Positions 7,499-23,590 of a stretch of 64,000 bases of DNA are shown piece by piece. How positions within the stretch are numbered: position 1 is the stretch's first letter; every line of letters starts with the position of its first letter. This stretch comes from an uncultured Gammaproteobacteria bacterium (GTDB taxonomy: Bacteria; Pseudomonadota; Gammaproteobacteria; Ga0077536): NCBI GenBank assembly GCA_963976285.1, contig CAXBJY010000005.1, forward strand, positions 3,164-67,163. The letters run 5' to 3'. Both the position numbers and the translations under genes were made by a program. The notes under the pieces were generated by a model. The model was not told the DNA's origin and searched no databases. It saw only the letters and a program-made list of their open reading frames with translations.

Positions 7499-8575
7499 TC
7501 AGCCAGCGAGCGCGGCCGTGAGCGCCTGCCGCAGGCGGCCGATGTCGGCGCTGCTGATCTCGCCCATCATCGAAATCCTGAAAATCGACTGCGCGTAGCT
7601 GCCCTGGCCCGCGTAGATGATGAACCCGGCCGCCTTCAGCGCATCGTGCAGCGTCGTATAGTCCGTGCCTTGCGGTAACTTGTAGGCGTGCAGCACGCAT
7701 GAACACTCGGCGGCATCGAGCAGCGGTTCGATGCCGAGCACTACGAGGGTCTCGCGGACCGTCGCCATGCGTGATTCGTAAAGTGCCCGTCGCGCCGCGA
7801 CCCCGCCGGATTCCTCGAGCTCATCGAGCGCTTCGTCGAGCGCATAGAACGTCTGTATCGACTGCGTGAATGGGGTGCCGGCACTGTCCTGGGCGCTGAC
7901 ATAGGCGCCGAGGTCGAGGTACAGATTGCGCGGGTGTGCCGCGGCGAGCGCATCGCGCGACGTGATGACGAAGCACGTTCCCGGGACCCCGTGCAGGCAT
8001 TTGTTCGCGGTGGCCGCGCAAGCCGCGATCGGCACGCTCGTAAACGGGATCGCTTCGGCCGCGAAACTGCTGACCGCGTCGAGCAGCACCGCGACGTCGT
8101 GTTGCCGGCAGATTTCCCCCAGCGGCCCGAGATCGTTCAGGCGGCCGGTGGTCGTTTCGTGGTGGACCACGGCAATATGCGAGATGTCGCCATCGGCGGC
8201 GAGGGCGGCGGCCACGGCCGCGTAATCGATCGGCGCCTGCCACGCCTGCGTCACGCTCGTCGCCGGGATCGCATAGCGCTCCGCGATGCGGCGCATTCTT
8301 TCGCCGTAAACACCGTTCTCGACGATCAACAGCTTGCCATCGCGCGGCACGAGGCTCGTGATCATGGATTCAACCGCGGCCGTACCCGAGCCCGTGATCA
8401 GCGCGCTGGCCCAGTCGGATGCCGGGAGGTCGTAGGTCGCGAGCAACTTCTCGCGAATGCCGCTTTGCAGGCTCGAGAATTCCGGTTCGCGATGACACAG
8501 GTCGTCGCGCAGCATCGCGTTGCGTACGCGCGCGCTAAGGGTGACCGGTCCGGGGTTGAGCAGGATCGTTTTCAT
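7499..8575 (-). CDS. phnW: 2-aminoethylphosphonate--pyruvate transaminase (class V aminotransferase)
   Basis: N-terminus LLNPGPVTLS and class-V PLP fold of about 358 aa. Overlaps ppd by 4 nt (ATGA). Confidence 0.75.
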   Translation of the reverse strand: MKTILLNPGPVTLSARVRNAMLRDDLCHREPEFSSLQSGIREKLLATYDLPASDWASALITGSGTAAVESMITSLVPRDGKLLIVENGVYGERMRRIAERYAIPATSVTQAWQAPIDYAAVAAALAADGDISHIAVVHHETTTGRLNDLGPLGEICRQHDVAVLLDAVSSFAAEAIPFTSVPIAACAATANKCLHGVPGTCFVITSRDALAAAHPRNLYLDLGAYVSAQDSAGTPFTQSIQTFYALDEALDELEESGGVAARRALYESRMATVRETLVVLGIEPLLDAAECSCVLHAYKLPQGTDYTTLHDALKAAGFIIYAGQGSYAQSIFRISMMGEISSADIGRLRQALTAALAG

Positions 8576-9726
8576 TGATGGATTTGCTCCTGCAGCCGCT
8601 CGAGTACCGCGGCCGGAGTGATTGCGGGACGTGGCAGATCATCGATCGTGCCGGTGGTGATTTTCATATGCACGAAACGCGGGCCGTTGCCGCGGGGTTG
8701 CGCGAGAAACGCGCTCAGGTCGTCAGGATGCGCGGCGCGCGCCGCCACCGCATAACCGCAAGCCCGGGCGATGTCGGCGAAATCGACCCCGGCCGAAACC
8801 GTCGCCTGCGCACCGGTTGAATCGTGCGCCTCGTTGTCGAGCAACACATGCGACAGGTTGCCGCCGGCGTAAGCGCCGACCGTCGCGAGGTTGCCCATGC
8901 GCATGAGGCCCGCGCCGTCGCCGTCGATGATGATCACATGCAAATCCGGACGTGCGAGCGCAAGCCCGAGCCCGAGGCTCGAGGCACAACCCATCGAACC
9001 GACCATGTACAGCTGGTTCGCGCGGTCAGCGGCCGCGTACAATTCGCGCCCGCTGAACCCGGTCGTCGCGATCACGACGGACCCGCGCCCGGGGCTCGCG
9101 TCGATGATCCGTGCAAGCGCCTGCGCGCGGGTCGGGCGCGTCGCCGCCGCGCATTGTTCGATCGACGGTCCCGTAACCTGGGTTGCGCGCACGCGTTCCG
9201 GTGGCGGGGGATTCGACAGGGGATGCGGTGACACCGTGCCTTTGCGCATGACCAGGGCATAGGGTCGCCGTTCGCGCGTGAGGTAGGCCTGCGCGCGTTC
9301 GAGCGCCGGTCCGATATCCGCGGTGTCAGCCGGAAAGTATTCCCACGGTATCTCCATCGTGTCGAACAGTTCACCGGTAATCCGGCCCATGAGTTCGTGC
9401 TGGGGTTCGTCCTTGAGCCCGGGTGCGCCACGATGCGTGCAGATCACGAGCAGCGGGATGCGGAAGACATATGCGAGCGAGGTCAACGGACTGACGGCGT
9501 TGCCGAGACCCGAGTTCTGCATCATCGCGACTCCCCCGCGGCCGCCGATCGCGGCGCCGCAGGCTGCCGCCACCGCATCACCTTCGTTCGCGGCGGAAAC
9601 GTAAGTCAGCGCGGGATCGCCGATCACGTAGTTGATGAACGGGGTCAGAAACGAACACGGCACCCCCGCGTACCAGTCGAAGCCGGCCGCGCAAGCGCGG
9701 TCGACGAAATCTCGTGCTTCGATCAT
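8572..9726 (-). CDS. ppd: phosphonopyruvate decarboxylase (TPP-dependent)
   Basis: About 384 aa with TPP-binding GDG-x25-N region (IIIDGDGAGLMRMGNLATVGAYAGGNLSHVLLDNEAH). Lies between PEP mutase and the AEP transaminase. Confidence 0.8.
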   Translation of the reverse strand: MIEARDFVDRACAAGFDWYAGVPCSFLTPFINYVIGDPALTYVSAANEGDAVAAACGAAIGGRGGVAMMQNSGLGNAVSPLTSLAYVFRIPLLVICTHRGAPGLKDEPQHELMGRITGELFDTMEIPWEYFPADTADIGPALERAQAYLTRERRPYALVMRKGTVSPHPLSNPPPPERVRATQVTGPSIEQCAAATRPTRAQALARIIDASPGRGSVVIATTGFSGRELYAAADRANQLYMVGSMGCASSLGLGLALARPDLHVIIIDGDGAGLMRMGNLATVGAYAGGNLSHVLLDNEAHDSTGAQATVSAGVDFADIARACGYAVAARAAHPDDLSAFLAQPRGNGPRFVHMKITTGTIDDLPRPAITPAAVLERLQEQIHQ

Positions 9727-9742
9727 CGTGCTGTAAACCTGC

Positions 9743-11398
9743 TCAGGAATCCTGCTCCGCCGCGAAATCCCCGGCGCGCTCGAGATCGGTCAGTGAATTC
9801 ACATCGAGCCAGTGTCCGTGGATATACCACACGCGCACATCGCGGCCGGCGTCGACCATGGCGTTGATCAGCTCGGGCAGGCCGAGCTGAGCGAAATCGT
9901 CGCGTTCGGACAGTCGGTTTATCGCGTCCTCGAGCCACGTGCGTCCTTCGCCGGTCGCGCGGATCATGCCGATCCAGCGACCGCTGGGTTCGCCGTCCGC
10001 CCCGGGGTCGCGGCCTTCGACGATGCGCTTCAGACTCACGGCCTGGCCCCACATCGAGCGGTCGTCCGGTTCGCTGCAGTAGGCAAAATCCTGGGTGCCG
10101 TTGTGCACGAGTTCATCCGTCGCGGAATCGACAACGACGCTGAGGTCTGCGTCGCTCTCCATCAAATCGCGCAGGATGTAGCTGCGGAACAACAGATCAC
10201 CGTACATGATGACCATGTCGTCGCTGAACCGATCCATTGCGCAGCGCAGGGAGCTGAGTTCACCGGTGTTTGCAAACGCCTCGTTTACGAGCAGGTTGAT
10301 ACCCTGGACGTCGATACTTTCCGCCTTGTAACCCGCAACGACCGTAATGTCGTCGATGCCGCGCTTTTTACATTTATCGACGAGACGGCGGAGCAGGGGA
10401 ATGCCGGCGACCGGAATCATCGCTTTTGGCCGTTCGGCCGTGAGGCCTTCAAGGTCGCCGCCGCTCCCGCTGCCCGCGGCAAGGATGATCGCCTTCGTTT
10501 CGGCCTGGTAACTCGAGAAATAACGATCTTCGGCCGCCGCGAGTTCGTCCGCACCCTGCAGGCGAAACAGTTCGTCGACGCTTGCAATGCGGTCTTCGAT
10601 TTCCGTCAGTGACTCCGTTTCGTAGATCACGGCCGCGGTTTTCTGCATTGCCTGAACGGCGCTGCGGATCAGGTGGTTCGCCCAGATCACGAGGCTGATC
10701 TCCGCCTTGCGGAACACTTCGACGGGGGTACTGTAATACTTCGTCGGCACGATGACGACGGGCGCGCGGTTCGCCCATTCCGCGGCAAATTCGACGATCT
10801 GATCGGGGCGCGAGAGTTTGCTGTGGATCAGAATCGCATCGGCGCCGGCCTGCCGGTACGCTTCGGCGCGACGCAGCGCCTCGCCAATATCCCAGCCCGC
10901 GATCAACGCCTCGACGCGCGCCACGATACAGAAATCGTCGTCGGACTGACTGTCCTTGCCGGCAGCTATTTTGCCGCAGAACTCGTCGGCGTCCGCGAGC
11001 GGCTGGCGTTCACCGCCGATGAAGCTGTTCGTTTTCGGAAAGACCTTGTCTTCGATACACACGCCGCCGATATTGCGCTGCTCGAGTTTGCGCACGAGCC
11101 GGCGCATGTTATTGAAATTACCGTAACCCGTATCGCCATCGAGCAGGATCGGGATCGTCGTGGCATCGGACATGAACTCGAGCATATCGACGACCTGCGT
11201 CCAGCTCGCCTCGTTGTTGTCGCGGACGCCAAACTGCGCGGACAGGGCGAGTCCGCTGGCCCAGATCCCCCTGAAACCGGCTTCCTCCGCGATGCGCGCG
11301 CTGATGCCGTTGTGTGCCTCGAGGATGAATTCGAGCTGGTTCGAGCTAATCAGCGAACGCAGTGCGCGTGCTTTAGTCGGGGCGGTGGTATTCGTCAT
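9743..11398 (-). CDS. pepM: phosphoenolpyruvate phosphomutase fused to a C-terminal nucleotidyltransferase domain
   Basis: N-terminal 290 aa is an ICL/PEPM-family TIM barrel with PEP mutase-like motifs ([30 protein letters not shown]). The C-terminal domain has the glycine-rich NTP-transferase signature [23 protein letters not shown]. Confidence 0.8.
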
Positions 11399-12129
11399 TG
11401 AATTCTCGGCAGGATCTGTTGGTTCGCGCGGGTTATATCTTCAGGAAAATCGATTTCGACCCAGGGGCGGCCCGTGACGTCGACGACGTCGAACGTCGCG
11501 CCCTGCACCAGTACGAGATCGCGAATGGCCTCTTCATACGGCTCGTTACGTCGTTGCGCACCGACAAACGCGTCGGCAATGTCTGCCAGCGCCGTCGCGG
11601 TCGCGGCCGTCAGCGAGAAAAACCCGACGGATTCACCGGCATCGTCATAACTGAGATCCGGCGCGAGTTGTTTGCGAAATTCGACCACGCGACCGCGCTC
11701 GAGGCAGATTTTCACGGGTTCGTCGCCCGGTTCGAAATCGCGGTCGCACAGAAAGCGGTTATGCACCGGGACGTGGGCGAGCAAGCGCAGGAGTTCGGGG
11801 TCGTAGAGGACGTCGGCATCCATCAACAGGATATCTTCGCCGGCCCGCAAAGCGTCGCGCATCGTCCACAGGCTGACGACGCTGCCTTCGCGGAAGGCGG
11901 GGTTCATGACGGTCGTGACCCGTGCCTGCGTATGACCCGTCACCGCTTGCTCGAGCAGTTCGTGGCGATAACCGGTGCACAGCGCCACGTCTTCGATCCC
12001 GGCGGCGACGAGATTTCGCAGGTGACGTTCGAGCAACGTGATGCCGCCGAACTCGAGCAGGCATTTCGGCCGGTCGCCGTGGGCGCCGAGGCGTGCGCCA
12101 ACGCCGGCGGCGAGAATTATCGCGCGCAT
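11395..12129 (-). CDS. nucleotidyltransferase (LicC/cytidylyltransferase-like)
   Basis: [21 protein letters not shown] signature. Stop overlaps the pepM start (ATGA). A longer ORF extends to 12204, but the start is chosen at the ATG that puts the G-rich loop at the N-terminus. Confidence 0.65.
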
Positions 12130-12154
12130 GGGCGCGGCCCGCGGCGTGGTTCGT

Positions 12155-12895
12155 TCATGGTCCGGGGTTGCGGCGGTCGCGGCTGAACACCTGCCTGAAA
12201 CCAAAATAGGCGATCGCGTCCTTCATATTCGAGACGAAACGCAATACCGGGTTCATGTGGGTGCTCGTCAGGTACTCGAGCGTCAGCGCGACCCGGCGCT
12301 CGTCGGCGGCGAGCGGCGTGATCCGGTGATACAGCTTGTCGCCGTTGAACATGACGAACATGCCGGGTTCGAGATTGACGCTCAGCGCCGAGGTCGCGAC
12401 GGCGGGATTCTTCGTGTGTAACTGGCATTCGAGGCGGCAACTCGGCGCGGCGACGAGGCCGAGCAGGATCGTGTAGCGCGCGCCGTCGTAATACGAGGTG
12501 TCGTAGTGATAGCCGATGTGGTCGCCGGGTTCGGTGTAGTAGTACAGGGCATAGGTGTGCGGATCGCCCGGCGGGCAATAGTTCAGTTCGCGCCCGCACA
12601 GTGCGCTCATGAACGCCATCAGGGCTTCGGCCTGATACAGCTCGCCGTAGCGCGGCGCGGTGCGATCGAGGTCGAAACGGCTGACGCTGCCGCCTTTCTT
12701 GTGCTTCGGGATGAAGTTTCGATGCACGACGGGCTCGAGCGCGGGCAGGTCGCCGAGCAGGGCCTCGAGGGTTGCCGGCGGCAGGAAATCCGGCACCAGC
12801 ACAAATTCGTCCTGGGCCACGAAATCGCGCTTTAACTGCTCGATATCGAGTGTCTTCAGGTGCTCTGCGAGCGCAGTGTTGAGGTCGGATTGCAT
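12155..12895 (-). CDS. PhyH-like Fe(II)/2-oxoglutarate dioxygenase
   Basis: HYD (His-x-Asp) motif in GDHIGYHYDTSYYDG and a distal His in KLYHRITP. First gene of the phosphonate operon. Start uncertain: ATG at 12895, or upstream TTG at 12958. Confidence 0.45.
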   Translation of the reverse strand: MQSDLNTALAEHLKTLDIEQLKRDFVAQDEFVLVPDFLPPATLEALLGDLPALEPVVHRNFIPKHKKGGSVSRFDLDRTAPRYGELYQAEALMAFMSALCGRELNYCPPGDPHTYALYYYTEPGDHIGYHYDTSYYDGARYTILLGLVAAPSCRLECQLHTKNPAVATSALSVNLEPGMFVMFNGDKLYHRITPLAADERRVALTLEYLTSTHMNPVLRFVSNMKDAIAYFGFRQVFSRDRRNPGP

Positions 12896-13043
12896 CGGAA
12901 CTGGATCGTCGGGGTCGAACGGCGGTTGCAGGGTACAGCGAGAGCCACGCGCAATCAATTACAAGGTGGAGGCGCCGATAAAGCTGTGAGAACATGCGCG
13001 GATCGATCCCGCCCCGAATGCACAGGAATTCACTACCCGAGTA

Positions 13044-14054
13044 ATGCGCTACGCCAAACTCCTCTTTCTCGTTATCGGCGTCGCGTTGCTCGTGTGGGTC
13101 GTCAAGCAGGCGAATATCGGTGAAATCTGGCGCCAGGTGCAGGCCATCAGCGTTGCGCAGATCGCCGGTGTGTTCGTGATCTACGCGTTGTATTTCGGCG
13201 CCGACGCGATCAGTTGGCAGGTTACGCTGGATTCCGTCGCGATGAACCTGCGCTGGGCGGGGCGTCTGTTCATCGTGCGTATGATCGGCGAGGCCTACAA
13301 CAACATCACACCGATGGCGTCGCTCGGCGGCGAACCAATCAAGGCCTGGTTTCTGAAAACGAACTACAACGTGCCCTTGAGCGACTCCGGCGCATCGCTG
13401 GTGCTGGCGAAAACCGCGAGCATGTTCTCGCTCGTCGTATTCGTCGGGATCGCACTCGTGCTAATCCTCGGGCACGACGATTTGTCCGCGAGTGACAAGA
13501 CGATGGCGAGTGTCGGACTTGCCTGGCTTGTGTTCAACGTGATCGTGTTCTTCCTGATGCAGCATCTGAAATTATCTACGTTCACCGCGACCCGCCTCGG
13601 ACGCACGCGGCTCGGAGAGCGGATGACGCATTTTATCGCGGGGCTGCAGAGCGTCGATGAGCAATTCGCGCGTTTCTACAAGCACCACCGCGGTCGCCTC
13701 GTGCTGTCGATGGCCTATGCGATGGCGAACTGGCTGCTCGGGGTGGTCGAGCTGTATTACATCCTCGGGCTGATCGGACATCCGGTCGGCTGGTGGGACG
13801 CCTGGATCATCGAAGCGATGGTGCAGATGATCCGCACGGCGGCATTTTTCATCCCGGCCGGGATCGGGGCGCAGGAAGGAGCGCTGATGATCGCGTGCAA
13901 TGCGCTGGCCGGTTCGCCGAATATCGGCATTGCCGCCGCGCTCGTGCGCCGCTTCAGGGAACTCGTGTGGATCGGAGTCAGCCTCGCGATTGCGGCGGCA
14001 ATGCACGTGAGTCCGAAAGTCGCGCGCGAGCCGGTCGCGACGCAGGATGCCTGA
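13044..14054 (+). CDS. hpnL: UPF0104 / MprF-flippase-like polytopic membrane protein (HpnL-like)
   Basis: 336 aa with about 8 predicted TM helices. Divergent from the phosphonate operon and adjacent to hpnA. Confidence 0.5.
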   Translation: MRYAKLLFLVIGVALLVWVVKQANIGEIWRQVQAISVAQIAGVFVIYALYFGADAISWQVTLDSVAMNLRWAGRLFIVRMIGEAYNNITPMASLGGEPIKAWFLKTNYNVPLSDSGASLVLAKTASMFSLVVFVGIALVLILGHDDLSASDKTMASVGLAWLVFNVIVFFLMQHLKLSTFTATRLGRTRLGERMTHFIAGLQSVDEQFARFYKHHRGRLVLSMAYAMANWLLGVVELYYILGLIGHPVGWWDAWIIEAMVQMIRTAAFFIPAGIGAQEGALMIACNALAGSPNIGIAAALVRRFRELVWIGVSLAIAAAMHVSPKVAREPVATQDA

Positions 14055-14069
14055 GTACGGCCGCGGCGC

Positions 14070-15053
14070 TTACGGGTGCGCGCGAAACCACGCGATCGCA
14101 TCTTCGAGCGCCTCGCGTGCGGGACGCGCCGTGTAGCCGAGTTCGGCGATCGCACGCGAGGAATCAAAATACATCTTCTTCTTCGCCATGCGTAATCCGT
14201 CGACCGTCGCCTGTGGCTCGGGGCCGTGGGTCAGCCACGCCCAGGCCTCGCTGGCATAGGCGACGGGATAGATCAGCGGGCGCGGCAGGCGGACACGGGG
14301 CGGCGGTCGGCCGCAGATCGCGGCGATCATCGTCAGAATTTCGCGCAGGCTCAGGTCCTCTCCGCCGAGGATATAGCGGCGACCAATCTCGCCGCGGTCG
14401 AGGGCCAGCAGGTGACCCGCGGCGACGTCATCGACATGCACGATGTTCAGCCCGGTATCGACGTACGCCGGCAGGCGGCCGGCCTGCGCGTCGCGCACGA
14501 CGCGACCGGTTGGGGTTGGCTTGATGTCGCGGGGACCGATCGGGGTCGACGGATTGACGATTACCGCCGGCAGATCGTGCGTTGTCACGAGTTCGTCGAC
14601 GGCGCGTTCGGCGAGGTATTTCGAACGCTTGTAGTGCCCAATCATATCGGCGAGTGTCACCGGCGTCGTTTCACTCCCGCGTGTTCCGTCACCCGGATTG
14701 CCGAGCGTCGCGACGCTGCTCGTATAGACAACCCGGCTAATGTTCGCGTCGAGCGCGGCGTGCATGAGCGCGCGCGTGCCATCGACGTTCGTGCGGTACA
14801 ACTCACGCGGATCGCGGGTCCATAAGCGGTAGTCAGCGGCGACGTGAAACAGCGTGTCACATCCGACGAGTGCCCGAGCGAGCGAGTCCGCGTCGTTCAG
14901 ATCCCCCTCGCGAACGTCGGCGTCGAGTCCGGCGAGGTTGCGTCGATCGGCTCCGGGTCGCACGAGTACGGCGAGTTCGGTTCCGCGCGCGCCAAGCAGT
15001 CTCGCGACCGCACTGCCGACAAATCCGGTCGCGCCGGTGACGAGCGTCTTCAC
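14070..15053 (-). CDS. hpnA: NAD-dependent epimerase/dehydratase, hopanoid-associated sugar epimerase (HpnA-like)
   Basis: VTGATGFVGSAV Rossmann motif and YxxxK (HYKRSK). Probable GTG start at 15053; the ORF extends to 15137. Confidence 0.7.
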   Translation of the reverse strand: MKTLVTGATGFVGSAVARLLGARGTELAVLVRPGADRRNLAGLDADVREGDLNDADSLARALVGCDTLFHVAADYRLWTRDPRELYRTNVDGTRALMHAALDANISRVVYTSSVATLGNPGDGTRGSETTPVTLADMIGHYKRSKYLAERAVDELVTTHDLPAVIVNPSTPIGPRDIKPTPTGRVVRDAQAGRLPAYVDTGLNIVHVDDVAAGHLLALDRGEIGRRYILGGEDLSLREILTMIAAICGRPPPRVRLPRPLIYPVAYASEAWAWLTHGPEPQATVDGLRMAKKKMYFDSSRAIAELGYTARPAREALEDAIAWFRAHP

Positions 15054-15054
15054 G

Positions 15055-15651
15055 TCAGCGAGCGCCGTCGGTGCCGGTGCGAATGAACTGCAAGGCAACG
15101 ACAAGCAGGGCGATCGGCGCGCCGATCGCGGCGGCATATAAAAAACCGACTTCCTGATTGCTCAGCGTGACGAGCGGAATCAGGTACAGCACGTCTTCGG
15201 TTTCAAAGCCCGCGAAACTCGCCTGCCGGACCGCGGCTTTGCCATGGCGCGACTCGATCATGTGACGCAGTTGAAAAATACCGGCGACCGCGATGCCTGC
15301 GACAAGACCGTAAACCGCCGCGGCGTCGCCGATCGTCGCCGTCAATCCGAATCCGAGGCCCGTGAACAGGCCGACGGTCACGAGCGCGTCGCTGAACAGG
15401 TCGTAGCGATGGCCAAACACGCTCATTTTGCCGCTCATGCGCGCGAGTTCGCCGTCGGTGTGGTCGAGGAAGTTTGACAGCACGATGCACAGCGCGGCGA
15501 GGTTGAACTGCGAACCGGTCGCAAACAGCCACGCGCCCGCGAGACCGACGAGCAAACGCAGCGTCGTCAGCGCGTTCGGATGCAGACGTGTATCGACGAA
15601 TGGCCGCACGAGCAGTGCCGCCGCGCGGGCATCCCAGGGTTTTGCGCTCAT
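15055..15651 (-). CDS. CDP-alcohol phosphatidyltransferase family protein
   Basis: Signature D-x2-DG-x2-AR-x8-G-x3-D-x3-D (DHTDGELARMSGKMSVFGHRYDLFSD) with multiple TM helices. ATG overlaps the hpnN stop (ATGA). Confidence 0.75.
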   Translation of the reverse strand: MSAKPWDARAAALLVRPFVDTRLHPNALTTLRLLVGLAGAWLFATGSQFNLAALCIVLSNFLDHTDGELARMSGKMSVFGHRYDLFSDALVTVGLFTGLGFGLTATIGDAAAVYGLVAGIAVAGIFQLRHMIESRHGKAAVRQASFAGFETEDVLYLIPLVTLSNQEVGFLYAAAIGAPIALLVVALQFIRTGTDGAR

Positions 15652-18260
15652 GCTGTTCGTACTGGTGAGAACTGCTTCAACAACGCGGGCAATACTAGCA
15701 AGGTGCACACGAGCGTCGCCACGATGCCGATCGTGAGCATGACGCCCATGCTCGCGGTGCCGGCATGGGACGATGTTGCGAGGTTGCCGAAACTGACCGT
15801 GGTGGTCAGGGCGCTGAACAGTACGGCACGGGCCGTACTCGTTTGCAGCAGATTACCGTTGTCCGGCAGCGCGGTCCGGTAGCGGTGGAGCATGTGCAAG
15901 GCACTGTCGACGCCGATCCCGAGCAGCAACGGGAGCGCGATGATGTTCGCGAAATTGAACGGCAGCGAGAACACGACGGACGCTGCAGTCGTGAGCAGGC
16001 CGGCGAGGATCAGCGGGCTCAGCACGATGGCGACGTCCTTGAACGAACGCAGGATCAGCCACAACAAGCCCGTGATCACGACGAACGCGCAGGAGAACGC
16101 CTGGATAAACGCGAGCACGACGGCGTCACTCGCGCCGAGGTTGATGACCGGCGCACCCGTGATTCGATCGCCGAGCACCTCGCGCACGGATTCGACGAAT
16201 CGTTTCATCGCGCGCGGATCATCCACCGGTTCGGCCGGGAAGATTTCGAGGCGGCGCGTGCCGGATTCCGTCACCCAGCGTTCGCGCAGCTCCGGCGGCA
16301 GGTCGGTGACGTCGAACGGCTCGGGTGCGAGGCTGTCGTTGAGTAGCGCGAGTCGGCCGTCGAAACTCATGAGCAGTTTTGCCTCGAGCGCCGCGAGCGC
16401 GACGGCCTGGGCGTCCGGACCCAGCGTCGCAAACCTGTCGCGCCACGCGATGAGCGCGGAGCGCAGGGCGGCAGCGGCGTCCATCGCGGCCTCGTCGTCG
16501 AGCGCGGCGAGCAGTTCGTCTATCGCCGTCAGGGTGGCGGCGGGGTCCGCGGCGGGTGTTGGCTGTGGCGACAGATCGGCGCCGAGGATGAGGGCGAGAT
16601 CGTCGACGATGGCGAGCTTTTCGTCCTGCCGCGCGGGCACGAGGTCATCGAGACTGCGCACGGATTGCACGGTGTCGAGCGAACTCAGCGTGACGCTCGC
16701 GTCGGCGACTTCGGCGGCGGAATCGAACAGCGCGGATATCGACATCGGCGATTGCTGATCATCGGCGATCAGATCGCGATACGTCGTGACGGACTGCGCA
16801 GCCGGGTTGTTCAGGTTCACCGGGTCCGTGTCGAATTTCGCGCCCGGGATTGCCAGCGCGGTGAGTATCCACGTAACGGTCGCCACGCCCAGTACGGCGC
16901 GCGCGTGACGGCGCGGAAATGACGCGACTCGATCGGGCAGCGTAAACGTGCGTGTCGCGGGGCCGGGCTGCGGCATCACATGCAGCAGCGCGGGCAGCAG
17001 CGTGATACTGACGAGCAGACTGATGAACATGCCAACCCCGGCAATGAGGCCGAGCTCCGCAACCCCGCGATACGCCGTTGGCAGGAACGCAAAGAATCCC
17101 GTTGCGGTTGTCAGCGCACACAGGATCAACGATACGCCCACATGGCGGCTCGTACGGTTGATGGCGAAATCGGCGTTGTTGTGCCGGAGCATTTCGCGGT
17201 AGCGCAGGCAGATATGAATCGCGAAATCGACGCCGAGACCCACGTACAGCACCGCGAACGCGATCGAAATCATGTTCAGGGTGCCGACGGCGGCGACCGC
17301 GAAGCCCGCGGTAAAGACGAGGCCCACGATCAGCGTTACGAGCGTCGCGACGACGAGTACGATCGAGCGCAGGCCGATCAGCAGGCACACCAGCACCATC
17401 ACGAGCGCGAGGGTACCCGCGTTCTGCGAACCGGTGATCACGCTGTCGAGTTCGTCGTAAGCGAGCGCCGCGGCGCCGGTCAGGCGGATGTTCACGCCGT
17501 GTTCGCGATCGAGCGCGAGCGCTGCGGCATGGGCTGCGACCGCCTTCATGGCCGGTTCCGCGGGCAGCAGGGCGGTGTAATCGAGGCGTGGTTGCAGCAC
17601 GACGAACTCGCGATGCACGGCGGTGTCTTCGGCATCGCCCGTGAGCAGGGCTTGCCACGACAGCGGTACGTTGTTGCCACGGTTCAGTTCGTCGATAGCG
17701 CTTGCGATCCGAGCCGTCGCCGGCACAATCGCCGCCGGTGTCGTCTCCGCCGTCATTGCGTCCCGGAGCAGCCCGAACAACACGGCGCTCGAGCGCTCGG
17801 CGCTGAGACGCGCAAGAAACGGTTGTGCTTCGCCGAGTTGATCGCTGAGCGCCTGAAGTTCGTTCGGTGCGAGATACAACAGCTGATTGCGCCGCAGAAA
17901 CGGATCATCACGCGGGTAGAACACCTCGCCGACGATATCGTCCGCCGCGCGCAGCCGCTGCGTCAGCGCACCGGCGGCGTCGCGTGCCACATCGGCGGTT
18001 GCGCCGTCGATGACGACGACGATCGTATCGGCGAAGAACGGGAAGTCCCGTTTATAGGCGGTGTACGTCGCCCGCCACGGCAGCTTCTCCGACAGCATCG
18101 CACCGGTGTCGGTATTGATCGCAATATGGCTGATGGCATACCCGGCGACGAGCGCCGCGCCGACAAGGTAAGCGACAATAACCGGCCATGCCCGCCGCTG
18201 GGCGGTATCGACGAGACGGCCGATCACGTTCTCGGCCAGCGGGTACAGGGTGGCGAGCAT
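15648..18260 (-). CDS. hpnN: MMPL/RND-superfamily hopanoid transporter
   Basis: 870 aa with two large periplasmic loops and 12 TM helices in an RND/MMPL arrangement, inside the hopanoid operon. Confidence 0.8.
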   Translation of the reverse strand: MLATLYPLAENVIGRLVDTAQRRAWPVIVAYLVGAALVAGYAISHIAINTDTGAMLSEKLPWRATYTAYKRDFPFFADTIVVVIDGATADVARDAAGALTQRLRAADDIVGEVFYPRDDPFLRRNQLLYLAPNELQALSDQLGEAQPFLARLSAERSSAVLFGLLRDAMTAETTPAAIVPATARIASAIDELNRGNNVPLSWQALLTGDAEDTAVHREFVVLQPRLDYTALLPAEPAMKAVAAHAAALALDREHGVNIRLTGAAALAYDELDSVITGSQNAGTLALVMVLVCLLIGLRSIVLVVATLVTLIVGLVFTAGFAVAAVGTLNMISIAFAVLYVGLGVDFAIHICLRYREMLRHNNADFAINRTSRHVGVSLILCALTTATGFFAFLPTAYRGVAELGLIAGVGMFISLLVSITLLPALLHVMPQPGPATRTFTLPDRVASFPRRHARAVLGVATVTWILTALAIPGAKFDTDPVNLNNPAAQSVTTYRDLIADDQQSPMSISALFDSAAEVADASVTLSSLDTVQSVRSLDDLVPARQDEKLAIVDDLALILGADLSPQPTPAADPAATLTAIDELLAALDDEAAMDAAAALRSALIAWRDRFATLGPDAQAVALAALEAKLLMSFDGRLALLNDSLAPEPFDVTDLPPELRERWVTESGTRRLEIFPAEPVDDPRAMKRFVESVREVLGDRITGAPVINLGASDAVVLAFIQAFSCAFVVITGLLWLILRSFKDVAIVLSPLILAGLLTTAASVVFSLPFNFANIIALPLLLGIGVDSALHMLHRYRTALPDNGNLLQTSTARAVLFSALTTTVSFGNLATSSHAGTASMGVMLTIGIVATLVCTLLVLPALLKQFSPVRTA

Positions 18261-18265
18261 TTGCT

Positions 18266-18988
18266 TCAGGCGATCTTGGCGCGTTCATTACGCGACCCCG
18301 TCGTGGCGAAAGCCGGGCGCAACAGCATGGCCGCCTGGTGCAGGGTCGCGAGCGCCGCGCGATGCCAGCGCGCGAGGCGCAGCAGCGCGGGCAAATCCCC
18401 GGGGCTGTGCGCGAGCGAGGTGACAACGGACCATGGTCGCGTCGTGCCGTTGCTGGCAACCGCATCAAGCGCTATTCGCGGGATCGCGAAACCGACCGGA
18501 TCGACGATTGCCCGCACGGCGACGAAGCGTACTCCGGCGGCGGCCGCCGCCGCGCCGATTGCCGCGGATTCCATGTCGACGGCGACACATCGGCTTGCGG
18601 TGTGGATCGCTGCTTTTTCCGTCGGGTCGGTAATTGCGTGATCACTCGTATAGCCGGATCCGGTGCGTACATCGGTCGTGCGCAACGCATGGATGATGTC
18701 GCGCTGCCAGGTCGGATCGCATTGGCGGTGTGTGCCGCTGGCATCCACCACGTCGGTGTACACGAGAAGTTTGCCGGGGGGCAGGTTCGCCACGAGCGCG
18801 CCGGCGGTTCCCCATGACACGAGCGCATCGACCCGACCGGCCAGCATGCGCTCGGCCCCGGCGGCCGCGTTCGCGGGACCAATCCCGGTAACAATAATCT
18901 GGTGGCCATACGGATTCCCGTCGCGCGAGACGGCGGCATTCAGCGTGCGCGCCTCGTCGGCCATGGCCGTGACAAAACCTAATCGCAA
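18266..18988 (-). CDS. hpnG: PNP/MTA-nucleosidase family hopanoid-associated phosphorylase
   Basis: N-terminal RLGFVTAMADEA beta-strand typical of MTAN/PNP. About 240 aa. Probable TTG start. Confidence 0.7.
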   Translation of the reverse strand: MRLGFVTAMADEARTLNAAVSRDGNPYGHQIIVTGIGPANAAAGAERMLAGRVDALVSWGTAGALVANLPPGKLLVYTDVVDASGTHRQCDPTWQRDIIHALRTTDVRTGSGYTSDHAITDPTEKAAIHTASRCVAVDMESAAIGAAAAAAGVRFVAVRAIVDPVGFAIPRIALDAVASNGTTRPWSVVTSLAHSPGDLPALLRLARWHRAALATLHQAAMLLRPAFATTGSRNERAKIA

Positions 18989-19010
18989 AATAGTGTTCCG
19001 GTTTGAATGT

Positions 19011-20099
19011 TCAGACGACGCGTGATTCAGCTTCGTCGATAACAGTGGGCGCGCTGGCCGTGATTTCCCGTTGCGGCAGACCGCTCGAGGCGAGCGCGAA
19101 CAGGGCCCACAAGCCGGCGTTCGATCGCACGAGCGCGTTCGTCGAAATCACCGTCGCCTTGACGCTGCGGCGTAAAATTTTTACTTCGCTGCCGTCGGCG
19201 TAATCGCGGTGACGATTGAGCTTGCGCAACGTGAGCACGGCCATACCAAGCGCCCACAAACAGAATTTACGCATGCCGGGTTGCTCGCGCGGCAGCATGC
19301 AGGTGTAACGCAAGGCATTGCGCAGGTGCCCGTGAGCAACACTGATCAATTCACCGAGTGCATCCTCGAACCCCGGGCCGCCGCGGCCGGGCGCGATGTC
19401 GGACAAGCGAACGCCACGGGCGGCAAACACGTCGGCCGGCAGCCAGCACGCGCCGCGGGCACGGTCGTCCCAGATGTCTTTCAGGATATTCGTCATTTGC
19501 AGGCCCTGGCCGAAAGAGACGGCGAGCCGCATCATCTCGGCACGCCGCGGTTGCAGTTCAGGACAGTGGTCGCAAAACAACGCGGTCAACATTTCGCCCA
19601 CGACGCCGGCGACATAGTAGCAGTAGCGGTCCATCGCTGCCTGGTCTGCGAGTCCGTCGAGCGTTTCCTGACCCTGGTAATAGACCATGCCGTCGGCCAT
19701 CGTGCGTACGCACGCTTCCATCGCCGCGCGCTGGTTCGCGTTGAGACTGTGCGTGATGCGGATCACGGCCGGCGTCTCGGCGACGAGCTCGCGCTCCGCC
19801 GCGAGGGTGTGCGAGGCGAGCCGCGGCGCGAGTTCGGCGGCAAATGCCGCGGCGTCGCCATCGCCGCGAACGATATCAATGAACGCCTGCGAGTAACGCA
19901 GTTTGTCGTCGAACGGCAGCCCGGCGTCGTCCTCGATGGTGTCGGCGATCCGGCACAGCAGGTACGCATTCGCGACCGCGTGATACAGCGCCGCGGGCAG
20001 CGTCGGAATCGTCAGCGCGAAGGTTCTGGACACGCCCTGCAGGATACGGTCCTGAAAAGCGGTGTCGCGCTCACTCGGTGGGTTACTCATGGGGGGCAT
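19011..20099 (-). CDS. sqs: squalene synthase (squalene/phytoene synthase family)
   Basis: Asp-rich motifs (RIADTIEDD, NILKDIWDD) and an isoprenoid-synthase fold. The roughly 360-aa length favours a single-enzyme Sqs type over HpnC/HpnD. The ORF extends upstream to 20474, but the conserved core starts near M126. Confidence 0.75.
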   Translation of the reverse strand: MPPMSNPPSERDTAFQDRILQGVSRTFALTIPTLPAALYHAVANAYLLCRIADTIEDDAGLPFDDKLRYSQAFIDIVRGDGDAAAFAAELAPRLASHTLAAERELVAETPAVIRITHSLNANQRAAMEACVRTMADGMVYYQGQETLDGLADQAAMDRYCYYVAGVVGEMLTALFCDHCPELQPRRAEMMRLAVSFGQGLQMTNILKDIWDDRARGACWLPADVFAARGVRLSDIAPGRGGPGFEDALGELISVAHGHLRNALRYTCMLPREQPGMRKFCLWALGMAVLTLRKLNRHRDYADGSEVKILRRSVKATVISTNALVRSNAGLWALFALASSGLPQREITASAPTVIDEAESRVV

Positions 20100-20223
20100 A
20101 GTGTATCCGTCTTGGGTCGTGCGGAGCCAGTCGCCGGCGGCAGCGGCGCGACCGCGGTCGCAGCGCGCGTTATGATCCGCGCCCAGACCATGACGCGGGG
20201 CGGTTCCCGGCGGGGGAACGGGG

Positions 20224-21234
20224 ATGGACTCGATAACGGAAATCAGCGTGACAACGACGGCGCCGGGCACGTTCACGATCGCCTGGCCGCCCGCATTCTC
20301 GCCCGACCCCGTCAGCGTCTGCGCGAGTTCCGCGCCGGACACGCTGGCGCAGGCCGACCCGGTGGTGACGGACGCTGTCGGCCACTGCACGCTCGGGGGA
20401 TTCGCGCCGGATGCGCGCCAGTATTTCCGCCTGAGTCGCACGAACGGCGAGGATCTCGTCGTCGCCGAACGCAATGTACCGCTCGCAGGGGCGGTGAACT
20501 TCCGCGATCTTGGCGGCTACGCCGCGATTGACGGCCGGCGGGTCCGGTGGGGGCGTCTGTTCCGCTCCGGCCACCTGTCGACCCTGACCCCGGCCGGGCA
20601 GGCGGCTTTCGCACGACTCGGCATCGCGACCGTGTGTGATTTTCGCCTCGCCTCGGAGCGTGCCCGGGAGAACATGACCTTACCAGCGGGCGTGACGCTC
20701 GAAGGCATTGAAATACCGCCCGGGGTGCGCGATCCCGAGTATTTTCACCGGGTTTTCCGCGACGCCAGCGGGCCGGACGACGTGGCCGAGGCGGTGCACG
20801 AGGTGGTCCTGTCGATGGTCAACGAGTCGGCCGACCGCTATCGCCGTCTGTTCGAGGTGTTGCTCGAGCCGGGAGAACGCAACATTTTGATCAATTGTTC
20901 GGCGGGCAAGGAACGCACCGGGATCGCCACGGCGCTGCTGCTCAGCGCTTTGGGCGTTCCCCGGGAAACGATTTATTATGACTTCATGCTGTCGGCCGTG
21001 TATTTTCCCGCGCTTGCGGAAATTCCCCGGGTGCTCGAAAAGTATGCTGTCAGTGCCGTCGGCGATGCCGCGCAGCGCCTCGTGATGCCGTTGCTCGAAA
21101 CGCGCGCATCGTATCTGCAGGTCGCATTCGATTCGATCGACCGCGAGTGCGGGGACACGGACGCGTTTTTACGCAAGCATTACGATCTCGGCACGGCCGA
21201 ATGTACCGAACTGCGGCGACGTTACCTCGTATGA
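20224..21234 (+). CDS. protein-tyrosine phosphatase family protein (Y_phosphatase3-like)
   Basis: CX5R P-loop INCSAGKERTG. Confidence 0.6.
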   Translation: MDSITEISVTTTAPGTFTIAWPPAFSPDPVSVCASSAPDTLAQADPVVTDAVGHCTLGGFAPDARQYFRLSRTNGEDLVVAERNVPLAGAVNFRDLGGYAAIDGRRVRWGRLFRSGHLSTLTPAGQAAFARLGIATVCDFRLASERARENMTLPAGVTLEGIEIPPGVRDPEYFHRVFRDASGPDDVAEAVHEVVLSMVNESADRYRRLFEVLLEPGERNILINCSAGKERTGIATALLLSALGVPRETIYYDFMLSAVYFPALAEIPRVLEKYAVSAVGDAAQRLVMPLLETRASYLQVAFDSIDRECGDTDAFLRKHYDLGTAECTELRRRYLV

Positions 21235-21280
21235 AGGCGAATTGATCGCAGCGATAACAAGAAGATATTGAGGATACGCC

Positions 21281-22024
21281 ATGAGCAGACTCTACGAAGA
21301 CGGGGACAAGTACGGCTATCAGTCGGATTTCGCCATCGTCGAAGCGTACAACAGCGCGGTGAAAGACCTTGTCCGCAAGCGCTTCGATGAATCCGGCCTC
21401 GCGTGGCGCGACTTTGTTGCCGGGCGCGCCTACGATGCGATCACGAAGGACGACATGGCGGCAATCGAACAACGCCTGCTCAGCTACGGTTACCGCTTCG
21501 AGCCGTCGGCCATGTCCTCGGCGACCGAGCGTCCGGAAGCCTACAAGGATTCCGGTTTGCACGACGAGAACTTCTGTTTCGAACACCCGGACGCACCAAC
21601 CGCCCCTGCCGATGCAGGCGGGCGGGAGCTGCGCGGTGCCGGCGACAATGTCGTCAGCCGCGCGGCGAATGTCACCGGCATTGCGCGTTACGTGCGCACG
21701 AGCGACAAAGTGCTCGAATACCTGACGAACGGTGTTCCGGACGACACGATCGCCATCGTCGATGACTCGGGCGGCACGCTCACCGCGCCTATCCTCGAGA
21801 AATTCAAAGCCGTGCTGTGTGCCGGCGGGACAACGCGCTCGCATCTCGCGATCCTCACCCGCGAATACGGAATCCCGTGCTTCATGAACGCGCGCCTGAG
21901 CGGTATCAGGACCGGCGATGTGCTCGAAGTCGAAGCGACGGCGAAAGCAAAATCGGGGGACGACTATGCCAGCGGCAGCGACGTTTCCGGGAAGGTCTGG
22001 CGGCTCAAGGCGTCCGGAGAATAG
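21281..22024 (+). CDS. PEP-utilising-enzyme mobile (phosphohistidine swivel) domain protein
   Basis: C-terminal GGTTRSHLAILTREYGIPCF resembles the PEPS/PPDK phospho-His segment GGRTSHAAIIARELGIP. The N-terminal 150 aa are unassigned. Confidence 0.6.
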   Translation: MSRLYEDGDKYGYQSDFAIVEAYNSAVKDLVRKRFDESGLAWRDFVAGRAYDAITKDDMAAIEQRLLSYGYRFEPSAMSSATERPEAYKDSGLHDENFCFEHPDAPTAPADAGGRELRGAGDNVVSRAANVTGIARYVRTSDKVLEYLTNGVPDDTIAIVDDSGGTLTAPILEKFKAVLCAGGTTRSHLAILTREYGIPCFMNARLSGIRTGDVLEVEATAKAKSGDDYASGSDVSGKVWRLKASGE

Positions 22025-22027
22025 AAC

Positions 22028-23590
22028 ATGTCAGAGAACAAGCTAACCTACGCGCAGCTGCTCGAAACGAATAATCTGATCCAGCAGAACGCGGACGAAA
22101 CCTACTGGCTGTGCGCCACCCGCACGGTGCAGGAATCGAAGATCTTTCCGGTCTCGGCCTACATACTGTTTTCCTACCTGAACTGCTTTTACCGCTATCC
22201 GACGTTGCTGAAAAAGATCGAGGCGAGCATGTCGGCCGAGGAAATCGGCGATCGCGCGCGCAACCAGGGACAGAAAATCACGGCCTGGACGCTGCCGTGC
22301 TTCTACCTGCTCGGCCGCGAAATGCTGATCAACTGGGGCATGATCAAACCGACGGACGCGGTCGAGGATGTGATCTACGTACTCGACTTCTGGAAACGCT
22401 TTCAATTGTCATGGCATCGCAATAACGGCAACCTGACGAACCGCCAGGCGGGACACCGCGCGCAGGTAATGCCGGAGCAGAAGCTGCAGGTGTTCCATGC
22501 CGATGCATTCGAGTGCCGCGAAGGCGATCCCCTGCACAAGGCCGCGCAGGCCTTCATGGCGACCACGGCGCAATACGGTTTTCTCGTTTCGTGCGAGAGC
22601 CGGCTCACGATGCACAACCACGGCCCGTACAGGATTTCCGATCGGCGTGAAATGCTCGTGCGCGATTTTCGGGAACTGTCCGAGTACGACGTGCCGTGGC
22701 TCGACGGGGTCGGACGGGATATCCCGTTCAATAACCTCACCGTGACGATGATCCTCGAGGACTGCCACATCAACCTGCTCGACGACTGGGGCTCGTTCGA
22801 GTCCGAGCCGGAAATGCGTGCCGAGCACATGGTCGCGGTGGGCCTGTATACGGCGGATAACCTGTCCGACGGACACATCCCGGTGGGCATGGGCAGTAAG
22901 CAGGAATTGACGGACACATTCCTCGACCTGACTGAACGCGTGAAGGTAGCGACCGGCAAGCTGTGGCAGGAAATGTCCGGGTGGACCCGCGATCAGCAAC
23001 TCGACGCCGGCGCGCTGACGTATTTCGCCGTGATCAAGGAGTTCGCGCATTACGCCGGCGTGTATGACGTCGACGACTGGATGATGATCGACGAACGCGC
23101 GGAGCGCTTCCGCCCGTTGCTGAACGACGAGTACGGCAATCTGTTCCTCGGCGAACTCGTCGGTTACATCACGACACCGAGCCAGCGGATGCATGACTAC
23201 ACGATGATGCAGCACACCGGGACGCCGGCGCGCGCGCTGAGTTATTTTCCCTATTCGATCCTCGACGACGGCGACTATACGGCTTCGGTCGGGCCGATGC
23301 GTCCCGGTACGAGTAACCTGCCGGCGAAAGTCGACCGTTACCGCACGACCGAAGGCGTACTCGGCCTCGACGAGTACAATCGGCGCAGCCGCGAATTCGT
23401 GCCGAACAGTTGTTCGCCGCGTTTCCGTTATCTGTGCGCGGACTGGGTGAAGTACCACTACGAGACACCACTGGCCGATGAACTGTTCGCGCTCGAGCAA
23501 AAGGATTCGCGCCTGCTCAAGGGCAAGGGGGCGAGCCTGCGCCGGGATGATATCGAACGTTTGCGCGCCGCGAGCAACGCAGGGGAGTAG
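22028..23590 (+). CDS. hypothetical protein, 520 aa
   Basis: Protein-like composition rich in W/Y/F. 4-nt spacing from both the upstream and downstream genes. Confidence 0.5.
   Translation: MSENKLTYAQLLETNNLIQQNADETYWLCATRTVQESKIFPVSAYILFSYLNCFYRYPTLLKKIEASMSAEEIGDRARNQGQKITAWTLPCFYLLGREMLINWGMIKPTDAVEDVIYVLDFWKRFQLSWHRNNGNLTNRQAGHRAQVMPEQKLQVFHADAFECREGDPLHKAAQAFMATTAQYGFLVSCESRLTMHNHGPYRISDRREMLVRDFRELSEYDVPWLDGVGRDIPFNNLTVTMILEDCHINLLDDWGSFESEPEMRAEHMVAVGLYTADNLSDGHIPVGMGSKQELTDTFLDLTERVKVATGKLWQEMSGWTRDQQLDAGALTYFAVIKEFAHYAGVYDVDDWMMIDERAERFRPLLNDEYGNLFLGELVGYITTPSQRMHDYTMMQHTGTPARALSYFPYSILDDGDYTASVGPMRPGTSNLPAKVDRYRTTEGVLGLDEYNRRSREFVPNSCSPRFRYLCADWVKYHYETPLADELFALEQKDSRLLKGKGASLRRDDIERLRAASNAGE

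Follow-up and report, generated by a model that had tools for sequence, protein, structure and literature searches.

A CDP-alcohol phosphotransferase family gene between hpnN and hpnA as the probable headgroup transferase of a phosphonate-lipid pathway associated with hopanoid gene clusters

In a 64,000-nucleotide stretch of contig CAXBJY010000005.1 (positions 3,164 to 67,163; assembly GCA_963976285.1) from an uncultured gammaproteobacterium, here called the window, a gene encoding a CDP-alcohol phosphatidyltransferase family protein (the transferase) lies between hpnN and hpnA. The order of this minus-strand operon is a squalene-synthase-family gene, an hpnG-like gene, hpnN, the transferase gene, and hpnA. 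A second minus-strand operon (7499-12895) contains genes for an oxygenase, a cytidylyltransferase, a phosphoenolpyruvate (PEP) mutase fused to another cytidylyltransferase domain (Ppm~PntC), phosphonopyruvate decarboxylase (Ppd), and 2-aminoethylphosphonate (AEP) aminotransferase (AEPT), and it is set apart from the transferase gene by hpnA and a plus-strand gene for an HpnL-like protein. Hopanoid genes bracket the phosphonate genes on both sides, and the transferase gene is split off into the hpnN-hpnA operon. An initial annotation of this DNA had named hpnN, hpnA, and AEP-forming genes as neighbors of the transferase gene; these identities hold at curated cut-offs (Table 1), but the AEP genes belong to a separate transcription unit. 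We regard it as probable that the transferase is the membrane enzyme that attaches the headgroup in a Kennedy-type phosphonate-lipid pathway, each chemical step of which is predicted from sequence.

The transferase gene starts with an ATG at 15651-15649 and ends with a TGA at 15057-15055. As the initial annotation had reported, the start overlaps the stop codon of hpnN (TGA, 15650-15648) in an ATGA at 15651-15648, and a single base (C, 15054) separates the transferase stop from the GTG start of hpnA (15053-15051). Read from this GTG, hpnA encodes 327 amino acids (aa) that align with the HpnA model from residue 1; upstream, hpnN encodes 870 aa. An alternative hpnA start at ATG 15137, which would overlap the transferase gene by 83 nt, receives no support from the HpnA model alignment, and a longer, GTG-started frame for the transferase (15708) is unsupported because its homologues begin at the methionine of MSAKPWDAR. 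Records of 9 contigs include an identical protein, and there are 1716 homologues at E <= 1e-3. The transferase gene is therefore a real and conserved gene rather than a chance open reading frame (ORF).

A scan of one genome per GTDB species yielded at least 519 relatives of the transferase, and the best 80 loci were compared with all proteins of the window, with neighboring genes assigned by tblastn of the window proteins and from deposited annotations. In all 32 of the species-level loci in which hpnA follows the transferase gene, the transferase stop lies no more than 10 nt from the hpnA start, and the two genes overlap by 4 nt in 20 of them. The hpnN stop overlaps or abuts the transferase start in most loci that have an upstream hpnN, and the identical ATGA overlap occurs in six species loci and in the metagenomic contigs nearest the window. 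Given this conserved geometry of starts and stops, it is reasonable to infer that the transferase gene is cotranscribed and translationally coupled with hpnN and hpnA. In a scan of positions 12000-21500, predicted promoter and terminator sites were no more numerous than in shuffled sequence.

The transferase matches Pfam family PF01066 with 53.8 bits (gathering threshold, 22; E = 3.8e-14). The catalytic motif recognized in the initial annotation is present as D63-H-T-D66-G67-E-L-A70-R71-x8-G80-x3-D84-x3-D88, reading LDHTDGELAR-x8-G-x3-D-x3-D, and thus contains the full superfamily signature (D-x2-DG-x2-AR...G-x3-D-x3-D, on transmembrane helices TM2-TM3). The motif residues are invariant across 25 homologues with 58-90% identity, whose N-termini fall at the same methionine. 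An AlphaFold (AF2) model built from 25 homologues (pLDDT 90.9, pTM 0.86) predicts an interfacial N-terminal helix and six transmembrane helices, as expected for the superfamily fold. The best NCBIfam matches are to archaetidylinositol-phosphate synthase (NF040950; 49.6 bits versus a cut-off of 180) and PIP synthase (NF045883; 34.2 versus 170), and both models align with residues 14-117 only. The scores for ClsA (NF053678; 31.0 versus 240), DIPPS (NF041135; 29.7 versus 580), and PssA (TIGR00473; 24.7 versus 107) are also below the cut-offs. Because every curated subfamily score is below its cut-off, the transferase is, as judged from its sequence, a superfamily member outside every characterized subfamily. 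A conserved C-terminal loop (residues 129-160) is specific to the transferase clade in the homologue alignment and is charged and strongly conserved (K138, Q143, E150, E152, and D153).

The closest solved structures are AF2299 (4O6M) and the IPCT/DIPPS of Archaeoglobus fulgidus (4MND), which Foldseek matched to the model at a probability of 1.00 with TM-scores of 0.74-0.75 and 0.68, respectively; PIPS structures scored 0.69-0.71 at the same probability. A profile search of the PDB gave the same ranking (best E about 6e-7), with the N-terminal half alone aligned. The PIP and archaetidylinositol-phosphate synthases, such as PgsA1 (6H59), share the 6-TM size class of about 200 aa, but the transferase scores 3-5 fold under their cut-offs and the likeness is confined to the N-terminal CDP-binding half. 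In IPCT/DIPPS, a cytidylyltransferase is paired with a CDP-alcohol phosphotransferase whose donor is a small, soluble CDP-alcohol, and PntC and the transferase resemble this pair split in two: the activities are fused in that protein, whereas here they are encoded by separate genes, and the transferase has no fused cytidylyltransferase domain. A further difference is that the DIPPS acceptor is a soluble inositol phosphate, whereas the presence of a flippase-like partner suggests that the acceptor of the transferase is a lipid. Eukaryotic choline/ethanolamine phosphotransferases are the accepted route from CMP-AEP to AEP lipids. CEPT1 (8GYW) and CHPT1 (8ERO) follow the logic proposed here, in which a CDP- or CMP-activated amino-alcohol headgroup is moved to a lipid hydroxyl, as does the CDP-choline:diacylglycerol (DAG) phosphotransferase of Treponema denticola. 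However, CEPT1 and CHPT1 are only distant relatives (E = 5.5e-4; TM-scores of 0.37-0.58) and are much larger, with extra transmembrane helices; in the Foldseek ranking, the choline/ethanolamine phosphotransferases and phosphatidylserine synthase came far behind.

The genes around the relatives tie the transferase to phosphonate metabolism. The gene for the oxygenase and/or the stand-alone cytidylyltransferase (PntC) is adjacent to the transferase gene in 68 of the 80 loci, and Ppm/Ppd/AEPT pathway genes are present at 60. Furthermore, the transferase and the oxygenase are fused in frame in 19 of the 80 loci, from two lineages, to form a single frame of about 470-510 aa. The fusion is found in all Pandoraea species and in several Steroidobacteraceae and related metagenome-assembled genomes (MAGs) (L034, L035, L038-L045, L052, L059, L062, L064, L068, L077, and L084-L086, at about 10001-11430 in each). 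This natural fusion would couple hydroxylation with the transfer step. Because the transferase is predicted to have six transmembrane helices, its C-terminus should be cytoplasmic, which fits the C-terminal position of the oxygenase in the fusions. The initial annotation had proposed that the transferase would attach the phosphonate headgroup to a hopanoid or glycerolipid, and the comparative genomic data strongly support a putative role in headgroup attachment.

Three arrangements of the module were recognized. Five metagenomic contigs carrying homologues with 60-100% identity have the arrangement of the window, and the same order is found in type A loci, which come from MAGs of marine, freshwater, and groundwater Gammaproteobacteria with transferases that are 50-73% identical. 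Some type A loci lack hpnN, and the transferase gene then directly follows hpnG. Type B loci (52-60% identity) occur in Pandoraea, Pararobbsia, Trinickia, Burkholderia, Ralstonia, Cupriavidus, Mycetohabitans, Steroidobacteraceae, and Nevskia and consist of one codirectional operon: transferase, oxygenase, flippase-like gene, cytidylyltransferase, Ppm~NTP, Ppd, and AEPT. Type C, found in Paraburkholderia, comprises the transferase, oxygenase, HpnL-like, and cytidylyltransferase genes, followed by an MFS transporter gene. No Ppm, Ppd, or AEPT gene was found within 10 kb of the Paraburkholderia modules (L069 10001-14845; also L072, L080, L083, L087, and L089), which suggests that the phosphonate is supplied from elsewhere or that the substrate is different. 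One of the five metagenomic contigs, a close relative (L009 13473-15134), has no stand-alone cytidylyltransferase and retains only the one fused to Ppm, and the second cytidylyltransferase is thus dispensable in at least one lineage. Two cyanobacterial matches (L058 and L073), which lie on short contigs, had no informative neighbors.

These neighborhoods also bear on the idea that the gene product is a phospholipid synthase with a housekeeping role (PgsA, PssA, or PIPS-like), encoded in the hpn operon by chance and without a tie to phosphonates. Annotation of some homologues as "phosphatidylglycerophosphate synthase" or "archaetidylinositol phosphate synthase" agrees with it, but the scores for the curated families are all below the cut-offs (49.6, 34.2, and 24.7 bits, as given above), phosphonate genes and in-frame oxygenase fusions accompany the transferase as just described, and the gene is missing from shc-bearing replicons that have no phosphonate genes. 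We consider a housekeeping role extremely unlikely.

In the proposed phosphonate-lipid pathway, Ppm, Ppd, and AEPT would produce AEP, which the HalD-like oxygenase would hydroxylate, with 1-hydroxy-AEP as the predicted product. A PntC-type cytidylyltransferase would then form CMP-(hydroxy)AEP; formation of CMP-AEP by PntC enzymes has been demonstrated (PMC6697681). At the cytoplasmic face, the 6-TM transferase would then pass the phosphonyl-alcohol moiety on to a membrane lipid hydroxyl, with release of CMP, and the HpnL-type flippase-like protein may carry the product to the outer leaflet. In the lineage of the window, the transferase gene would have moved from the phosphonate operon to its position between hpnN and hpnA, placing production in step with the hopanoid exporter.

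The polarity of the reaction could also be reversed, with CDP-diacylglycerol as the donor and the hydroxyl of 1-hydroxy-2-AEP as the acceptor to form phosphatidyl-hydroxyAEP, in the manner of PIP, PGP, and PS synthases. The archaetidylinositol-phosphate and PIP synthases are the best NCBIfam matches and PIPS structures are similar to the model, the conserved charged loop would suit a small polar acceptor, and the oxygenase, which would create the nucleophilic hydroxyl, is the most constant neighbor and the fusion partner in the 19 loci noted above. However, reversed polarity leaves the one or two conserved cytidylyltransferases without a role, even though one accompanies the transferase in the Ppm-less modules of Paraburkholderia. 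In addition, the module of Roseomonas contains the transferase, HpnL, and PntC and has no oxygenase, and the PIPS and AIPS scores are all far under the family cut-offs. We consider this polarity very improbable.

The headgroup transfer role is already a published prediction (PMC8942020 and PMC5987646). The seven-gene core has been described as the "Burkholderiales_CDP-OH" group, which accounts for 318 of 882 ppm neighborhoods (36% of those in RefSeq) (PMC8942020, Li & Horsman 2022). That paper equates the group with what Yu et al. 2013 termed "Group 1 phosphonolipids"; it predicts a 1-hydroxy-AEP lipid as the product and does not mention hopanoids. A study of a Nostoc cyanolichen described the same cluster, labeled its membrane protein hpnL, and proposed transfer of CMP-activated (H)AEP to a glycerolipid (PMC5987646). 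Positions 7499-15651 of the window contain all seven core genes (Ppm~PntC, Ppd, AEPT, oxygenase, second PntC, transferase, and LPG-synthase-like protein). Aligned over at least 95% of its length, the transferase shows 52-60% identity to its orthologue in the published group, the product of the first operon gene, in Pandoraea, Burkholderia, Trinickia, Cupriavidus, Ralstonia, and Mycetohabitans. Whereas the published clusters form a single codirectional operon, in the window the transferase gene is between hpnN and hpnA, the membrane protein gene is on the opposite strand, and the remaining phosphonate genes are in an operon of their own, with dxs and hpnH beside it. The transferase gene is 5 genes from ppm and in another operon, and the family was defined by ppm +/- 5 genes. 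The window cluster is a rearranged variant of Burkholderiales_CDP-OH. What is new is the move of the transferase gene into the hopanoid export operon and the recurrent association with hopanoid genes across classes.

Among the annotations of the window (Table 1), two rest in part on locus L001, which has genes 99% identical to those for the squalene/phytoene synthase family protein and the oxygenase of the window, for which PF00494 and PF23169 (HalD), respectively, are recorded. The best NCBIfam match of the stand-alone cytidylyltransferase is the IPCT half of IPCT/DIPPS (73 bits). The MlaA/VacJ-like lipoprotein is called "hpnS" elsewhere (bioRxiv 10.1101/2025.07.29.667474). A 292-aa arginine-rich ORF at 12117-12995 (minus strand) lies out of frame over the oxygenase gene, has no family match, and is spurious; mechanical ORF lists of the window therefore need frame checks.

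Table 1. Annotated features of the hopanoid-phosphonate region, in window coordinates, with the supporting matches
Feature	Position	Strand	Evidence
CDP-alcohol phosphatidyltransferase family protein, 198 aa; predicted (hydroxy)aminoethylphosphonyl transferase	15055-15651	minus	PF01066, motif, AF2 model
Squalene/phytoene synthase family, head of hpn operon	19011-20342	minus	Partial TIGR01559, HpnD, and HpnC matches
hpnG-like nucleoside phosphorylase	18266-18988	minus	TIGR03468, 174 bits, just below cut-off of 187
hpnN, RND/MMPL hopanoid transporter	15648-18260	minus	TIGR03480, 931 bits (cut-off 752)
hpnA, hopanoid-associated SDR/epimerase	14070-15053	minus	TIGR03466, 492.6 bits (cut-off 368)
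HpnL-like flippase-like membrane protein (LPG_synthase_TM)	13044-14054	plus, convergent with hpnA	PF03706, 127.5 bits
HalD/BesD-family Fe(II)/2-oxoglutarate oxygenase, 246 aa, predicted AEP hydroxylase	12155-12895	minus	H-x-D (hydroxylase-type) motif
Stand-alone NTP_transf_3 cytidylyltransferase (PntC-like, IPCT-like)	11395-12129	minus	PF12804, 58.9 bits
PEP mutase fused to second NTP_transf_3 domain (Ppm~PntC)	9743-11398	minus	TIGR02320, 390 bits (cut-off 320); PF12804
Phosphonopyruvate decarboxylase (Ppd)	8572-9726	minus	TIGR03297, 427 bits (cut-off 312)
2-Aminoethylphosphonate aminotransferase (AepZ/AEPT)	7499-8575	minus	TIGR03301, 380 bits (cut-off 361)
dxs paralogue flanking phosphonate operon	5575-7476	plus	TIGR00204, 920 bits
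hpnH, adenosyl-hopene transferase	4106-5236	minus	TIGR03470, 552 bits
hpnB glycosyltransferase	2945-4057	minus	TIGR03469, 380 bits (cut-off 379)
hpnM (MlaC-like)	2241-2849	minus	TIGR03481, 206 bits
MlaA/VacJ-like lipoprotein	1398-2153	minus	NF011672, 128 bits, below cut-off

Beside the squalene synthase gene, a plus-strand trio (20224-23590) encodes an IphP-type phosphatase (Y_phosphatase3), a protein with a PEP-utilizers domain, and a 520-aa protein without a family. The trio is conserved in the type A loci L001, L005-L007, L010, and L011, and identity of its 520-aa protein reaches 89-91% in loci whose transferases share only 65-73%; the equivalent in L005 is called as a single product of 722 aa. 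Downstream of the hopanoid region, positions 39549-58171 encode two cytochrome P450s, two linalool dehydratase/isomerase-family proteins, and a luciferase-like monooxygenase, a possible terpenoid-modifying island. Two minus-strand ORFs of 737 aa (33820-36033) and 611 aa (36228-38063) have no Pfam match at E <= 1e-6 and may represent novel proteins or wrong-frame artifacts of GC-rich DNA.

Physical linkage of the transferase gene to hpn genes extends beyond the window: hpn genes are present within 10 kb at 51 of the 80 species-level loci. Gamma-, Beta-, and Alphaproteobacteria all have examples in which the module lies within or beside a hopanoid cluster, and the gene order differs each time. 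On plasmid pBRH01 of Mycetohabitans rhizoxinica, genes for the transferase, the 2-oxoglutarate oxygenase, an LPG-synthase-domain protein, a cytidylyltransferase, aepX, aepY, the AEP aminotransferase, and dxs are followed by two hypothetical genes and then by genes for an MMPL transporter, an MlaC-like protein, ispH, hpnH, hpnA, a glycosyltransferase, an hpnG-like gene, and shc. A dxs gene and an HpnN-type transporter gene also follow the AEP aminotransferase gene in most Pandoraea, Pararobbsia, a Burkholderiales MAG, and a Herbaspirillum MAG, and these transporters are 65-73% identical to that of Mycetohabitans. In Ralstonia pickettii, 2 kb separate the operon from the end of an upstream block of hpnL, hpnK, hpnI, hpnH, ispH, hpnA, and hpnB.

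In the alphaproteobacterium Roseomonas marmotae (plasmid p1318-3; L092 21744-29470), the transferase is 39% identical (E = 7e-26). Its module has genes for the transferase, AEP aminotransferase, an HpnL-family protein, Ppd, Ppm~NTP, and a cytidylyltransferase, with no oxygenase gene, and is nested between ispH/hpnH and the genes for a polyprenyl synthase, HpnN, and VacJ, beside hpnA-hpnB-hpnCDE-shc-hpnG. Lastly, a cave Chromatiales MAG (L057 2889-7300) has an isolated hpnN-transferase-hpnA triad amid copD, pfkB, lgt, thyA, and folA. In another Chromatiales MAG (L031 6198-7124), a gene for a PhyH-family dioxygenase, whose best match is a model of the methylphosphonate hydroxylase PhnY* type (207 bits, below the cut-off), lies between hpnG and hpnN, upstream of the transferase gene; no Ppm gene was found within 5.6 kb downstream of the transferase gene there.

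Some further features of these loci were noted. In Pandoraea (L034 16163-19175), a dxs paralogue lies about 22 nt after the AEP aminotransferase gene on the same strand, and the corresponding gap in Mycetohabitans (L090 26183-29281) is 115 nt; given these short same-strand gaps, dxs may be cotranscribed with the phosphonate operon. In both Mycetohabitans (L090 12032-15320) and a Steroidobacteraceae MAG (L085 4964-7638), the operon is preceded by genes for a sigma-54 activator and a sensor kinase, which may represent a shared regulator. In Roseomonas, a 71-aa ORF overlaps the transferase start.

In a plasmid collection, 13 of 14 large replicons with a transferase homologue also hold shc. Conversely, the shc replicons of Sinorhizobium, Azospirillum, Methylobacterium, Bradyrhizobium, and Caballeronia contain no homologue at E <= 1e-20. 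Because the gene is missing from hpn clusters on replicons without phosphonate genes, it is a gene of the phosphonate module rather than a core hpn gene. The initial annotation had held that absence from otherwise syntenic hpn operons would count against a role for the transferase in attaching the phosphonate headgroup; such absence was found only in the trivial case of replicons that lack phosphonate genes altogether.

The flippase-like partner provides another connection to hopanoids. The best NCBIfam match of the window protein is HpnL (TIGR03476), at 159 bits versus a cut-off of 196, whereas its counterparts in Mycetohabitans (330 bits), Pandoraea (352), and Roseomonas (260) exceed this cut-off. 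In Ralstonia pickettii, one HpnL is encoded in the hopanoid cluster and another copy in the phosphonate cluster, which indicates that these are paralogous subgroups. The genes hpnA, hpnB, and hpnL have no established function and are reported to be absent from alphaproteobacterial genomes without hpnH (PMC12583986). A recent survey also calls the function of HpnL unclear, and its text does not mention phosphonates or CDP-alcohol transferases; however, in its Table S7 the functions correlated with SHC in Gammaproteobacteria include those of PEP phosphomutase (r = 0.43, p = 3e-58) and of phosphonopyruvate decarboxylase (r = 0.38) (bioRxiv 2025.07.29.667474). The IPR000462 CDP-alcohol phosphatidyltransferase family (id 6) is listed within 20 ORFs of shc in Table S8 of the same work, with a frequency of 1409 in a partly garbled column, but the subfamily is not identifiable, the id did not appear in the Burkholderia rows examined, and we gave this entry no weight. 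In a literature search combining hopanoids and aminoethylphosphonate, the only published hint found was one sentence on Acetobacteraceae.

An HpnL-type partner is also relevant to whether the acceptor is a bilayer lipid at all. Phosphonoglycan clusters typically contain LicD-type transferases and not CDP-alcohol phosphotransferases. Lipid A or the lipopolysaccharide core, a polyprenol-linked glycan, or another envelope glycoconjugate could be decorated in the manner of a phosphonoglycan, and AEP is known on a polysaccharide of Bacteroides fragilis (PMC6697681). The neighboring hpnB (a glycosyltransferase gene) and hpnA (sugar-epimerase-like) would suit such a role, but the constant partner is a lipid flippase-like protein of the MprF/HpnL type and there are no conserved polysaccharide genes around the module, and we judge a non-bilayer acceptor to be very unlikely.

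Within the phosphonate-lipid pathway, the acceptor that we tentatively favor, at somewhat less than an even chance, is an extended hopanoid polyol, namely, bacteriohopanetetrol (BHT) or a BHT glycoside. It is favored because of the nesting of the module in hopanoid clusters of three classes, the isolated hpnN-transferase-hpnA triad, the HpnL-family partner, and the correlation of Ppm and Ppd with SHC. In its full form, which we put forward with slightly more reserve, the proposal is that the Group 1 product may be BHT or a glycosylated hopanoid esterified with (1-hydroxy-)2-aminoethylphosphonate, rather than a glycerophosphonolipid, and that it may be made by the transferase, flipped by HpnL, and exported to the outer membrane by HpnN. 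A lipid other than these or DAG seems a very improbable acceptor.

DAG is a possible but slightly more doubtful acceptor in the same pathway. With CMP-(H)AEP as the donor, the product would be diacylglyceryl-(hydroxy)AEP, and proximity to hpn genes would reflect only coregulation or cofunction of two envelope lipids rather than a covalent hopanoid product. Eukaryotic ethanolamine/choline phosphotransferases and the Treponema denticola CDP-choline:DAG enzyme are precedents, and CEPT1 and CHPT1 are detectable relatives of the transferase. The pathway has been drawn in this way for Nostoc and Burkholderia clusters (PMC5987646), and a glycerolipid is implied by the label "Group 1 phosphonolipids" (PMC8942020). 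However, DAG as the acceptor does not account for the location of the module in or beside hopanoid clusters of three classes with differing gene orders, for a partner flippase that belongs to the hopanoid-restricted HpnL family, or for the survival of the isolated hpnN-transferase-hpnA triad. Moreover, such a glycerophosphonolipid has not been found in well-studied Burkholderia lipidomes (PMC8942020).

Several points weigh against the pathway or its hopanoid acceptor, and the first three of them also favor DAG. To our knowledge, no phosphorus-containing hopanoid has been described. There is no hpn gene within 10 kb at 29 of the 80 loci, which include Burkholderia sensu stricto, Paraburkholderia, Trinickia, Cupriavidus, and Steroidobacteraceae, and on chromosome 2 of B. 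cenocepacia, a record without annotation, no hpn gene was found within 20 kb of the phosphonate cluster. In one survey, SHC was found in 0 of 6 Steroidobacterales genomes, and, if this is also true of the module-bearing MAGs, it argues against an obligatory hopanoid acceptor. The NCBIfam likeness of the transferase, although far below the cut-offs, is highest to enzymes whose donors are CDP-lipids and whose acceptors are inositol phosphates. The pathway does not account for two cytidylyltransferases, no member of the clade has been characterized biochemically, and no phosphonolipid has been characterized from the Burkholderiales_CDP-OH family (PMC8942020).

The phosphonate field, with regard to the product of the commonest ppm family, and the hopanoid field, with regard to the roles of HpnL, HpnA, and HpnB, have open questions on the same genes, and within the literature searched the two do not cite each other. 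In the window, the genes for phosphonate attachment are physically interwoven with the hopanoid export operon, and the association recurs in bacteria that are cultured and open to genetic work (Pandoraea, Mycetohabitans rhizoxinica, Ralstonia pickettii, and Roseomonas marmotae). If the acceptor is DAG, the transferase would be the gene for bacterial phosphonolipid synthesis and part of a coregulated hopanoid/phosphonolipid envelope program. If the acceptor is a hopanoid, the product would be a new class of composite-hopanoid lipid and a biomarker with a C-P bond, HpnL would gain its first function, and there would be a new sink for AEP in marine and soil bacteria.

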